A stretch of 64,000 bases of DNA, taken from Chloroflexota bacterium (GTDB lineage: Bacteria > Chloroflexota > Limnocylindria > Limnocylindrales > CSP1-4). Numbering within the stretch: the first letter of the stretch is position 1; each line of letters opens with the position of its first letter. Position numbers and translations under genes: made by a program. Shown here piece by piece: positions 17,764 to 24,040 of this stretch. The stretch covers positions 271,211 through 335,210 of the forward strand of contig JAHBUZ010000001.1 of NCBI GenBank assembly GCA_019637815.1, written 5' to 3'. The notes beneath the pieces were generated by a model. The model ran no database searches. It worked only from the letters and a program-made list of their open reading frames with translations, and was not told the origin of the DNA.

Positions 17764-18306
17764 ATGCCGTCAATGCCCCACACCACCGGTGCCCTCCACT
17801 TCTCCACGCGTGGCGAGTACGGTGTCCGGCTCATGGTGGAGCTCACTCGCCACCACGGCACCGGGCCCGTCAGCCTCGCCGAGATGGCCGACCACGAATC
17901 GCTGCCCCGGCCCTACCTGGAGCAGCTCGTGAGCAGCCTTCGGGAGGCGGGTCTCGTGCGCAGCACCCGCGGTGCACGGGGTGGCTACGAGCTCGCTCGG
18001 GATCCGTCGGCGATCCGCATGAGCGAGGTGATCGTAGCCCTGGAGGGGCCCATCACGCCCATGATCTGCGCCTCGGACGGTCCGGAGGCGGACGCCGCCC
18101 ATGGGGGCTGCGATCGGGTCTCCTTCTGCCACGTCCAGGGCCTCTGGATCCGGGTGCGTGAGGCCGTGGTCCAGGCGCTCGACTCGATGACCCTGCTGGA
18201 TCTCGCCCAGCCCGCCTCAGCCCATCCGCACCACCCGGTGCTCATCCATCCCAGCACGCTCACGCTCGACCGACCCACCCGCACGGAGCCCGTTCCCAAC
18301 GCATGA
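17764..18306 (+). CDS. Rrf2-family transcriptional regulator (IscR/SufR-like; three Cys plus His, likely cluster-binding)
   Basis: STRGEYGVRLMVEL...PVSLAEMAD.ESLPRPYLEQLVSSLREAGLVRSTRGARGGYELAR is an Rrf2 HTH. C-x13-C-x5-C-H (ICASDG...GGCDRVSFCH) gives candidate cluster ligands. Confidence 0.85.
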   Translation: MPSMPHTTGALHFSTRGEYGVRLMVELTRHHGTGPVSLAEMADHESLPRPYLEQLVSSLREAGLVRSTRGARGGYELARDPSAIRMSEVIVALEGPITPMICASDGPEADAAHGGCDRVSFCHVQGLWIRVREAVVQALDSMTLLDLAQPASAHPHHPVLIHPSTLTLDRPTRTEPVPNA

Positions 18307-19205
18307 ACAGCCTCGACGTCGCCCCTCTGCCTGACACCACCGCGACCGCCGATGACCGGGAGCTGGTCATCCGTGACCTGCACGTGGTGCCCGTGGCGGA
18401 TCCCTCGCGGGAGATCCTGCGGGGCATCGACCTGACCGTCCGGAAGGGCGAGGTCCACGCGATCATGGGCCCCAACGGCTCGGGCAAGACCACGCTCGCC
18501 TACGCGCTCATGGGCCATCCCGCGTACGAGGTCACGGGCGGCGAGGTCATCTGGAAGGGCCAGGACATCCTGGCGCTCTCCCCGGACAAGCGTGCCCGCC
18601 TGGGCCTGTTCCTGGCGTTCCAGTACCCCACGGCCATCCCGGGTCTGTCCGTGGCCAGCTTCCTGCGCACCGCGCTCAACGCGCGACGTCGCGGGCTGGA
18701 CGTGAGTGACGCGGAGTTCGACCCGTCGGACCCCACGCGCGGCGGCATCGGGATGCGCGAGTTCCGTGACCTCGTGCGCCAGAAGATGGCGCTCCTCCGG
18801 CTCGATGACAGCTTCGCGTCCCGGTACGTCAACGAGGGTTTCTCGGGCGGCGAGAAGAAGCGGCTCGAGATGCTCCAGATGGCCGTGCTCCAGCCCGAGA
18901 TGGCCATCCTCGACGAGACCGACTCGGGCCTCGACATCGATGCCCTGCGCATCGTCGCGGAGGGCGTGAACGCCCAGCTGAACGATGACCTGGGTGTGCT
19001 CGTCATCACCCACTACCAGCGGCTCCTCGACTACATCAAGCCGGATGTCGTGCATGTCCTCGCCCAGGGTCGCATCCTGACCACGGGCGGTCGCGAGCTG
19101 GCGCTCGAGCTGGAGCGGAGCGGCTATGCGCCGATCCTCCGGGCGGCCGGTCTGGAGGTGGCTCCGGACGAGGCACCCTCGGGAGATGACACGAGCGTCG
19201 CATGA
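18303..19205 (+). CDS. sufC: Fe-S cluster assembly ATPase SufC
   Basis: [25 protein letters not shown]...G.DIL.L.PD.RAR.G.FLAFQYP...FSGGEKKR.EMLQ...DETDSGLDIDAL...ITHYQRLL are diagnostic SufC blocks. Confidence 0.9.
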   Translation: MNSLDVAPLPDTTATADDRELVIRDLHVVPVADPSREILRGIDLTVRKGEVHAIMGPNGSGKTTLAYALMGHPAYEVTGGEVIWKGQDILALSPDKRARLGLFLAFQYPTAIPGLSVASFLRTALNARRRGLDVSDAEFDPSDPTRGGIGMREFRDLVRQKMALLRLDDSFASRYVNEGFSGGEKKRLEMLQMAVLQPEMAILDETDSGLDIDALRIVAEGVNAQLNDDLGVLVITHYQRLLDYIKPDVVHVLAQGRILTTGGRELALELERSGYAPILRAAGLEVAPDEAPSGDDTSVA

Positions 19206-20521
19206 GCGATCCCACCGCCCACCGCGTGCCGCTCGACCCGGACGTCATCCGGGCCGACTTCCCACTGTTCGAGCGGGACTTCGGCGGTCGACCGCTGGCC
19301 TACCTGGACAGCGCCGCGACCTCGCTCAAGCCGCGCGCGGTGCTGGACGCGCTGGACGACTACAACGAGCGCTACACCGCGAACATCCACCGGGGCATCT
19401 ATACGACCGCGGAGGAGGCGACGGCCGCCTACGAGGCGGCGCGCGCGTCGGTGGCGACGTTCATCGGTGCGGGCTCGCCCTCGGAGATCGTGTTCGTGCG
19501 CAACGCCACGGAGGCCATCAACCTCGTGGCGCATTCGTGGGGTCGGCGGCACATCCATCAGGCGGACACCATCGTGCTCACGGAGCTGGAGCACCACTCC
19601 AACCTGGTGCCGTGGCAGCTGCTCGCCCAGGAGAAGGACGCGGACCTCGAGTTCGTGGCCATCGACGATCAGGGTCGGCTCGACCAGCAGAGCTTCGAGG
19701 TGCTGCTGCGCACACGACCCCGCCTGGTCGCCTTCAACCATGTCTCGAACGCGCTGGGCACCATCAACCCGGTGCGCGAGATGACCCGCATGGCCCACGA
19801 GGCGGGCGCGCTGGTGCTCGTGGATGGCGCCCAGGGAGTGCCCCACGGGCCCGTGGACGTGCAGGCCCTGGACGTCGACTTCTACGTGTTCTCCGGTCAC
19901 AAGACGCTCGGACCCACCGGATCGGGCGCGCTGTGGGCGCGTCGGGAGCTGCTCGACGCGATGCCGCCGTTCATGGGTGGCGGCGAGATGATCCGCGAGG
20001 TCCATCTGCGACACACCACCTTCAATGACGTCCCCTGGAAGTTCGAGGCGGGGACACCGGACATCGCCGCGGCCATCGGCCTTGGTGCGGCCATGGGCTA
20101 TCTCGGCGCCCTGGGCATGGATCGGGTGCGTGCCCACGAGCAGGAGCTCGCGGCGTATGCGCTCGAGCTGCTGCCCCGGGAGGTGCCGGGCATCCGCATC
20201 CTGGGTCCGCGCGATCCCGCTGAACGCGCGGGGATCGTGACCTTCACGCTGCCGGGCATCCATGCGCATGATGTCGCCACGCTCCTCGACCGGGAGGCGA
20301 TCGCCATCCGGGCGGGCCATCACTGCACGCAGCCGCTCCATGAGCGACTCGGTGAATCCGCGACCGGCCGCGCCAGCTTCAACGTCTACACCACGACCGA
20401 TGACATCGACCGGCTGGCCGCCGGGCTGCGCTCGGTCCAGCGCGTGTTCGGTGCCCCGGACGCGCCCGCTGCGACCGACGGCGACCGGGCGGTCCGGTAC
20501 CCTGTGGGCAGCCATGGATGA
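19202..20521 (+). CDS. sufS: Cysteine desulfurase SufS (class V, group II)
   Basis: ...YLDSAATS.KP..V...NIHRG.Y...FSGHKTLGPTGSGALW (PLP Lys)...RAGHHCTQPL (catalytic Cys). The start overlaps the sufC stop. Confidence 0.9.
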   Translation: MSDPTAHRVPLDPDVIRADFPLFERDFGGRPLAYLDSAATSLKPRAVLDALDDYNERYTANIHRGIYTTAEEATAAYEAARASVATFIGAGSPSEIVFVRNATEAINLVAHSWGRRHIHQADTIVLTELEHHSNLVPWQLLAQEKDADLEFVAIDDQGRLDQQSFEVLLRTRPRLVAFNHVSNALGTINPVREMTRMAHEAGALVLVDGAQGVPHGPVDVQALDVDFYVFSGHKTLGPTGSGALWARRELLDAMPPFMGGGEMIREVHLRHTTFNDVPWKFEAGTPDIAAAIGLGAAMGYLGALGMDRVRAHEQELAAYALELLPREVPGIRILGPRDPAERAGIVTFTLPGIHAHDVATLLDREAIAIRAGHHCTQPLHERLGESATGRASFNVYTTTDDIDRLAAGLRSVQRVFGAPDAPAATDGDRAVRYPVGSHG

Positions 20522-23463: not shown

Positions 23464-23467
23464 TCGG

Positions 23468-24040
23468 ATGACCGATGCCACGCGGCACGGAGCGTCGACC
23501 GTCCGCTCCATCGGGTCGGAGCCGGCGGCGACGGGCGCGGATGATCGGGTCCCCTCGATCGACGACTGGCAGCGTGCCGCGGATTCCGGCCACGGGCGAC
23601 GGTCGGACGGATCGGGTGACCTGGTGGCCCGGGTGCCGACCGGGCTGCTCGACGCGGTCGTGGCGTGGTGCCAGGCTGGTCGACCCAACGAGGCGTGCGG
23701 TCTGCTCGCCGGCCCGGTGCTCGCGGGTGACGGCGGCGTGCCGACCCGGTTCCTGCCGCTCATGAACGCGGCTGCCTCGCCGTACCGGTATCTCATCGAC
23801 CCGCAGGAGCAGCTGCGTGCCGTGCTCGACATCGATGACGCGGACGAGGAGGTCTGGGGCATCGTCCATTCCCACGTCGCGTCGCCAGCCGTGCCCTCGG
23901 ACACGGACGTGGGGCTCGCCGGGTGGCCGGACGCGCTCTATCTCATCTGCTCGCTCGCGACCGAGCCGCCGGTCATCCGGGCCTGGTCGATCCGCGACGG
24001 CGCGGTCGCCGAGGTCACGCTCGAGCGCGGCCGCGACTGA
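23468..24040 (+). CDS. mec: JAMM/MPN+ metalloprotease (Mec-like CysO-cysteine peptidase)
   Basis: NEACGLL (Glu) and [14 protein letters not shown] (HxHx7Sx2D) form the JAMM motif. About 55 N-terminal residues are non-conserved, so the true start may be further downstream. Confidence 0.8.

Follow-up and report, generated by a model that had tools for sequence, protein, structure and literature searches.

A split SUF system and a CysO-type cysteine pathway behind one predicted IscR-type operator in Limnocylindria

What does the SUF ATPase SufC do in a gene cluster that encodes neither SufB nor SufD, and why should a complete CysO-type pathway for cysteine synthesis share that cluster with a cysteine desulfurase? 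Both questions are raised by a stretch of 64,000 nucleotides (nt) from an uncultured, soil-dwelling bacterium of the Limnocylindrales (phylum Chloroflexota, class Limnocylindria; contig JAHBUZ010000001.1, positions 271,211 to 335,210; G+C 70%), hereafter called the window. A first-pass annotation of the window had described eight co-directional genes: an Rrf2/IscR-like regulator (rrf2), sufC, sufS, sufU, a rhodanese-ThiF E1-like adenylyltransferase (E1), cysO, cysM and mec. All eight were recovered with Pfam and NCBIfam models, and the four junctions described as overlapping do overlap (rrf2/sufC, sufC/sufS and E1/cysO by 4 nt each, and sufS/sufU by 8 nt). The remaining junctions are gaps of 99 nt between sufU and the E1 gene, 11 nt between cysO and cysM, and 4 nt between cysM and mec. 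All features described below lie on the + strand, and coordinates are those of the window unless a contig is named.

The sequence evidence leans towards a single operon under an iron-sulfur (Fe-S)-sensing regulator of the IscR type, in which cysteine supply would be co-regulated with its use by SufS and SufU, SufC would be served by SufB and SufD in trans, and a leader with Cys codons would act as an additional gate. All of the parts belong to known families, and the locus is a tidy rearrangement rather than a new system. The novelty lies in how they are put together, with a SUF regulon split but placed under one predicted operator, a CysO pathway joined to sufCSU, and a Cys-codon leader inside the operon. 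This arrangement is typical of the whole Limnocylindria lineage, and a literature search found no paper that describes it.

SufC and the location of sufB and sufD

The sufC gene (18303–19205) encodes a protein of 300 residues that scored 324 bits against TIGR01978 (cutoff 213). Its matches in the PDB were SufC from T. thermophilus (278 bits) and E. coli SufC from the SufBC2D complex (269 bits), while SmsC reached 149 bits only; the protein scores as SUF-type and not as SMS-type. It carries short N- and C-terminal extensions and a 15-residue insertion. Relatives with 94% down to 71% identity were found in metagenome-assembled genomes (MAGs) labelled Limnocylindria, Limnocylindrales or unclassified Chloroflexota. 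A query for the exact SufC sequence gave no match. The window SufC is 61–66% identical to SufCs encoded next to sufBD, and those are 62–66% identical among themselves. Thus, there is no sign of accelerated change in the window SufC.

The first-pass annotation had seen no sufB or sufD in the window, and we found none in the 64 kb by tblastn at E ≤ 1e-3, using SufB and SufD from three outgroups and, later, SufB, SufD and Rieske proteins from Limnocylindrales as queries. The same searches found neither gene within ≈10 kb of sufC in about 45 Limnocylindria loci. A survey of gene order, which had been proposed together with that observation, placed sufC directly beside sufS in all 47 of the Limnocylindria-type loci that contained both genes, with gaps of 18–971 nt, too short to accommodate sufBD. 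In the outgroups (Thermoflexus, Dormibacterota, Acidimicrobiia, and loci labelled Ktedonobacterales or archaeal), sufB/sufD were adjacent in every locus that had a sufC relative and enough flanking sequence. A Dormibacterota locus (L058) has the order rrf2-sufC-sufB-sufD-Rieske-sufS...sufU, and a locus labelled Ktedonobacterales (L048) has one SufBD-family gene between sufC and sufS.

A scan of metagenome contigs for the pattern of the predicted operator upstream of rrf2 (described below) identified a contig, L106, on which the operator fronts sufB, with a divergent neighbor and no sufC upstream. Used as a query, the L106 SufB matched proteins named by NCBI as SufB of Candidatus Limnocylindrales or Chloroflexota. 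Stand-alone sufB-sufD-Rieske operons were present on four MAG contigs, L209 (DASVYJ01), L210 (DASTYU01), L214 (JBBEBL01) and L215 (JBBDXU01), and no sufC, sufS or sufU was found beside them in the 2.5–10 kb of flank read on each side. All five sufB promoters, including that of L106, contain an operator of the form AWWYCCGAY-N7-(A/G)(C/G)TCGGAATT between a TTGACG −35 box and the −10 box. The SufB of Limnocylindria is only 61–67% identical to other SufBs, which is why our first two SufB searches missed the lineage.

The description of SufC as an orphan was therefore correct in the sense that sufB and sufD are absent locally. A SufC without SufBD, however, is probably not real, because a sufB-sufD-Rieske operon exists elsewhere in relatives; the lone SufC is most likely only a local effect. 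The ancestor of Limnocylindria may have had the order rrf2-sufC-sufB-sufD-Rieske-sufS-sufU, from which the sufB-sufD-Rieske block would have moved out as a unit, keeping a copy of the promoter and operator. If the block left in this way, SufC would still work with SufB and SufD in trans.

The other two SUF genes are sufS (19202–20521), which encodes a type II cysteine desulfurase (TIGR01979, 561 bits) with the pyridoxal phosphate (PLP) lysine motif SGHK and the active-site motif RAGHHC, and sufU (20514–20921), which encodes a short form of the sulfurtransferase (TIGR01994, 109 bits; cutoff 92.5). In SufU, 118 residues aligned to 135 positions of the model, and ≈17 residues of the SufU-specific insertion are gone. 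The deletion is evident in the comparison with B. subtilis SufU (5XT5), as is the retention of three Cys and an Asp; the last Cys is preceded by Lys, not His, and there is no LPPVK motif. The window SufU nonetheless retains the SufU-type active-site residues, and related Chloroflexota have the short form as well. The window thus has SufC, a type II SufS, a zinc-type SufU and Rrf2 at the head of the operon, in common with SUF operons of the Gram-positive type (B. subtilis sufCDSUB) and those of Dormibacterota and other Chloroflexota. It differs from these in that sufB-sufD-Rieske, an operon of its own in relatives, is gone from between sufC and sufS, and in that SufU is ≈17 residues shorter.

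Several candidates considered in the search for sufB and sufD were rejected. Thermoflexus SufB and a SufB-SufD fusion from a soil catalogue (P0011), used as search seeds, did not reach the Limnocylindria SufB. A group of SufBs of 474 residues proved to belong to another Chloroflexota lineage with a full operon, and amino acid composition failed to pick out the high-GC SufB. Two MAG contigs with the order Rieske-sufB-sufD (L086 and L087) were set aside as candidates for the sufBD of this lineage, being of uncertain lineage and only 50–56% identical to the window proteins. On L087 (6578–12726), these genes follow rrf2-sufC-sufS-sufU, while on L086 (9683–12506) they stand alone. L086 and L087 (G+C 67% and 74%) have the Rieske gene first and the operator variant AAATCCGAY-N7-CTAGGAYTT. 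The neighbors of the stand-alone sufB-sufD-Rieske operons on the four MAG contigs are conserved, and include a gene of the ornithine cyclodeaminase family and, in three of the four, a gene of the VIT1 family (iron transporter-like). Inteins interrupt SufB in several MAGs of Thermoflexus and MAGs labelled archaeal (L040, L042, L044, L047, L052 and L055). The intein-containing SufBs (P0004–P0010) are 650–826 residues long and have intein and homing-endonuclease Pfam domains, and their tblastn matches are split by ≈1 kb. Intein forms of ≈810 residues also occur among SufBs of the Limnocylindria type (P0240–P0256). P0011 (779 residues) reads as an entire SufB joined to the last two-thirds of a SufD, and could be either a real fusion or an artefact of assembly or gene calling.

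The Rrf2 regulator and its predicted operator

The first gene of the cluster, rrf2 (17764–18306), encodes an IscR-like regulator of the Rrf2 family (PF02082, 123 bits) with three Cys at cluster-ligand positions. Its closest solved relative is IscR from Thermincola potens (4CIC, E 1.6e-33), followed by B. subtilis CymR; the best NCBIfam model was that of CymR, but the score was below its cutoff. By our assignment of positions, two of the three Cys align with ligand positions in 4CIC and the third lies beside them.

A motif scan upstream of rrf2 showed a σ70-like promoter site at 17638–17666 (TTGACG, 17-nt spacer, TACACT). Directly after the −10 box is a predicted 25-bp operator, AATCCTGACGCCCATACTCGGATTT (17668–17692), with a GAC-N7-nTC core that resembles the type-1 sites of IscR. 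This was the sole match in the 64 kb, where 0.04 would be expected at up to two mismatches. Its layout, AWWYCYGAY-N7-VTCGGRWWT, agrees with the published 25-bp type-1 consensus of E. coli IscR, ATASYYGACTRwwwYAGTCRRSTAT, which has a GAC-N7-GTC core (PMC3899308). Among 43 Limnocylindria loci, 37 have a predicted operator in the 230 nt that precede rrf2 and five more have one at a greater distance, and the same order, with the operator directly following the −10 box, was seen in relatives. The scan of the region gave two promoter-like sites against 0.4 expected, the second of which is located 3′ of mec, ahead of recQ; no promoter-like or terminator-like site was found within the cluster itself.

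Like IscR (the E. coli type-1 sites and T. potens 4CIC), the regulator combines an Rrf2 fold and three Cys with a 25-bp GAC-N7-GTC operator at its own promoter. Unlike IscR, it is predicted to control a split SUF regulon together with a CysO cysteine pathway. We infer that Rrf2 acts as a repressor, that the cluster is read as a single transcript, and that the leader described below senses cysteine. A single Rrf2 regulator would in this way tie the separated suf pieces together.

Predicted operators were also found at other positions. One lies upstream of sufU-E1 in L021, and in five relatives (L006, L010, L015, L050 and L053) an operator precedes a gene pair consisting of sufT and a cobalamin adenosyltransferase gene. 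The window has its own copy of this pair (13497–14584), starting with a SufT-like DUF59 gene (PF01883, 13497–13856), and no operator was found before it in the interval inspected (13380–13520). The pair is located 2–7 kb upstream of rrf2 in 12 related loci. The first-pass annotation had pointed to this gene and to an ErpA-like gene as scattered Fe-S genes, and both assignments were borne out; the latter (60098–60565) encodes an A-type Fe-S carrier similar to ErpA/SufA (PF01521, 69 bits).

Among the matches to the exact pattern in metagenome contigs were many sites ahead of rrf2-sufC, others ahead of sufU-E1 and the sufB site on L106, as well as loci with Rrf2 and IscS/IscU-like genes from unrelated organisms of lower G+C. 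A second operator lies close to one end of L106, at ≈3354. In some relatives, a second copy is present between sufC and sufS (L009, 4339–4363; L137, 3062–3086); since such copies occur in only some relatives, internal IscR sites appear to come and go. In another high-GC lineage, the same operator sequence is contained in the 3′-terminal part of a mec-like gene and immediately precedes a cysM-like gene (L143, 7705–7729; L155, 3332–3356), and these cysM-like genes are 52–53% identical to the window CysM. Finally, perfect operators with no suf, isc or cys gene detectable nearby were seen on a group of high-GC metagenome contigs (L091–L093, L102, L113, L114, L119, L124, L126–L128, L133, L135, L142, L147, L149, L159, L161 and L166), which may represent further members of the regulon.

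The cysteine module and the mini-ORF

The E1 gene (21021–22178) contains PF00581 and PF00899 and scored 552 bits against NF006444/PRK08762 (cutoff 449). It had been described as MoeZ-like. The rhodanese and ThiF domains are indeed both present, but the rhodanese domain (residues 25–111) is N-terminal, as in the PRK08762 type, whereas that of M. tuberculosis MoeZ is C-terminal, and the score against the MoeZ model PRK07878 (375 bits) was below its cutoff of 647. The protein has an active-site loop C78-AGGTRS and two CxxC pairs, and its best solved relatives are ThiF, MoeB and Uba4. The E1 of this organism is also present in the sequencing runs SRR12908307, SRR12908348 and SRR12908349. The next gene, cysO (22175–22447; PF02597), encodes a sulfur carrier with the ThiS/MoaD fold and the C-terminus ...AMAGG, the best solved relative of which is M. 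tuberculosis CysO (3DWG chain C, E 3.8e-24). It is followed by cysM (22459–23463; start taken from gene calls on identical Logan contigs), which encodes a cysteine synthase of the O-phosphoserine type. The closest solved relative of this enzyme is M. tuberculosis CysM (3DKI/3DWG, 310 bits), compared with at most 259 bits for CysK-type enzymes. The PLP lysine is conserved, as is the residue aligned with Arg220 of M. tuberculosis CysM, which we take to be the mark of an O-phosphoserine-type enzyme. The last gene, mec (23468–24040; PF14464, 71 bits), encodes a JAMM/MPN+ metalloprotease with ≈55 extra N-terminal residues and an intact metal motif, E...HSH-x7-S-xx-D. No sulfate-assimilation genes were found 3′ of mec, only recQ, a nucleoside ABC transporter, a nucleoside hydrolase and purK.

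In M. tuberculosis, the CysO pathway consists of mec (Rv1334), cysO (Rv1335), cysM (Rv1336) and moeZ(R) (Rv3206c) (PDB 3DWG, 3DKI). The window shares with it a ThiS-fold carrier ending in GG, an O-phosphoserine-type CysM, a JAMM hydrolase and a rhodanese-bearing E1. It differs in the gene order E1-cysO-cysM-mec, in having the E1 gene inside the operon and the rhodanese domain at the N-terminus, in being joined to rrf2-sufCSU, and in the Cys-codon mini-ORF (open reading frame) in front of the module. By this comparison, E1 would adenylate and sulfurate CysO, CysM would join CysO-COSH to O-phosphoserine, and Mec would release cysteine. As cysteine is the substrate of SufS, a low Fe-S status would derepress both its supply and its use. 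On one related contig (L018, 12602–14175), mec follows E1 directly, and cysO and cysM are gone, leaving a gutted cysteine module.

According to the first-pass annotation, the complete CysO pathway was appended 99 nt downstream of sufU. The module is attached as described, but the 99-nt gap is not empty and holds a conserved mini-ORF (20918–20953), MMCHGWCTGPA*, the ATG of which overlaps the sufU stop (ATGA). Its 11 codons include two Cys codons (ATG ATG TGC CAC GGA TGG TGT ACC GGG CCG GCC TGA), and its stop codon is in the loop of a hairpin, GCCGG-CCTGA-CCGGC (20944–20958). An alignment of the spacers revealed a conserved block, ...(R)C(R)C-x-x-P-A-stop, which in all 19 loci that bear the motif shares its reading frame with a start codon (ATG or GTG) at the sufU stop; the mini-ORFs are 9, 10, 11, 12, 14, 15, 18, 20, 22, 23 or 24 codons long. 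Chance would put one third of them in frame, and the frame has survived several independent indels, so that the 19 of 19 argue that the mini-ORF is translated. The Cys codons are separated by one to three codons (C-R-C, or C-x3-C in the window). Loci in which the start of E1 overlaps sufU have no mini-ORF, and neither does the clade that lacks the E1 module.

The arms of the hairpin at the mini-ORF stop, GCCGG(C)...(G)CCGGC, are conserved in all leaders, with a loop of 3–8 nt; there is no covariation because the sequence of the stem is invariant. RNAalifold gave no supported structure for the region of the mini-ORF and hairpin, and Rfam gave no matches within 13000–26500 of the window. In a subclade of seven members, the consensus fold pairs an invariant GCCCG with the ribosome-binding site of E1, CGGAGC, with energies no better than shuffles. 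Covariation is seen in an adjacent second hairpin of the same subclade, where one base pair occurs as four pair types and another covaries more weakly.

In mycobacteria, the ribosome-binding site of cysteine operons is hidden in a structure that opens when ribosomes stall at the Cys codons of upstream polycysteine small ORFs (sORFs) (10.1101/834739). The window mini-ORF resembles these sORFs (Ms5788A, Rv2334A; Canestrari et al., 10.1101/834739) in being a tiny, unannotated ORF with Cys codons directly before genes of cysteine metabolism and, in one subclade, in a spacer whose predicted fold includes a helix that would cover the ribosome-binding site. It differs in that it is not leaderless, starting on the sufU stop inside the operon, and in that its Cys codons are separated. 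By analogy, the mini-ORF is probably a cysteine-sensing leader for the cysteine half of the operon. Coupled to sufU, it would provide a second, cysteine-dependent gate on that half, and its position between sufU and E1 suggests that the cysteine half is switched on in cysteine shortage.

Alternative readings and significance

The explanation that we favor, co-regulation of cysteine supply with the SUF machinery in one IscR-controlled operon, has several observations to contend with. The presence of sufBD in the genome of the window is itself inferred from relatives, and among the named assemblies, contigs bearing sufC and contigs bearing sufB could not be paired within one MAG. As for the leader, its Cys codons are not consecutive, and the close relatives L001–L003 keep only one of them; 8 to 10 E1-bearing loci have no mini-ORF. 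The Cys-codon region pairs with the ribosome-binding site no more stably than shuffled sequences do, and the same holds for the folding of the window leader (z = 0.23). Furthermore, pure co-regulation does not require the tight linkage between sufU and E1.

The first-pass annotation had proposed a dedicated sulfur relay, which we regard as unlikely. In this alternative, SufS-SufU persulfide loads Cys78 of the E1 rhodanese domain and E1 thiocarboxylates CysO; the sulfur would then be recycled into cysteine or end up in a different product, and E1 may act on further carriers, MoaD or ThiS among them. The gene order is what speaks for it. E1 is directly 3′ of sufU in 24 of the 40 loci that could be read downstream, which are all 24 of the loci with the module; the remaining 16, a clade of their own, have another flavor of operator and no E1 module at that position. 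In eight loci the start of E1 overlaps or nearly abuts the sufU stop, and elsewhere a mini-ORF coupled to sufU precedes it. Where a second operator or a break occurs, it falls between sufS and sufU, and sufU stays with E1-cysO-cysM-mec (L021, L117, L130, L132, L134 and L140). There is also support from the literature on MoeZR, which serves both MoaD and CysO, and for which thiosulfate was judged non-physiological and a cysteine desulfurase was assumed to be the donor (PMC3227635). Nevertheless, the 16 loci without the E1 module keep sufU behind sufS with the same constancy, and the linkage of sufU and E1 may therefore simply mark the insertion point of the module. Making cysteine from the sulfur of cysteine also gives no net gain, a difficulty that the first-pass annotation had already pointed out, and a Cys-codon leader implies induction in cysteine scarcity, the worst time to spend cysteine. 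Such induction fits poorly with cysteine as the sulfur donor and well with a supply of cysteine for SufS.

A stronger version of the same idea makes SufU the physiological persulfide donor to the E1 rhodanese, so that sufU-(Cys leader)-E1-cysO-cysM-mec would be a self-contained unit tapping the SUF desulfurase. It would be doubly gated, by Fe-S status via IscR and by cysteine charge via the leader ORF, and its products may extend beyond cysteine. We consider this doubtful as well.

We regard as rather improbable a further reading, in which the mini-ORF is no regulatory leader and its product is a functional, basic CxC micropeptide that might, for instance, bind metal or persulfide to assist SufU or E1. 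The C-terminal R-C-R-C-x-x-P-A block is kept at the peptide level across lengths of 9–24 codons, as a micropeptide would require, the mini-ORF is translationally coupled to sufU, and the structure tests of the leader yielded no structural switch. However, synonymous positions are fixed as well (CGC TGC AGG TGT), which points to a constraint on the nucleotides or the ribosome. The mini-ORF is also very short and is dispensable in the E1-bearing loci that lack it, and the known precedent is regulatory (10.1101/834739).

That the genome truly lacks SufB and SufD, so that SufC has a different partner or SufU is the scaffold, is very improbable: the absence of both genes from the window and from the neighborhood of sufC in related loci, the IscU-like length of a SufU without most of its specific insertion, and the lineage-specific extensions of SufC would fit, but Limnocylindrales MAGs carry sufB-sufD-Rieske behind the same operator, the window SufC is as conserved as SufCs encoded next to sufBD, and SufU keeps its type-specific residues, in that Lys takes the place of His ahead of the last Cys and the LPPVK motif is missing.

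With sufU and E1 constantly adjacent, these loci lend themselves to the question of which donor supplies rhodanese-E1 enzymes with sulfur in vivo, which is unsettled for MoeZR too. On the co-regulation explanation, the SUF operon has been split class-wide into sufCSU, sufBD-Rieske and sometimes sufT, with coordination kept through one IscR-type operator, and a locally "missing" sufBD should not be taken as a loss. The oxidation-resistant CysO route would be under the same control as Fe-S assembly, tying Fe-S demand to cysteine supply. Control of the operon would then be layered, with an Fe-S-sensing repressor at its head and, within it, a Cys-codon leader that may sense cysteine.

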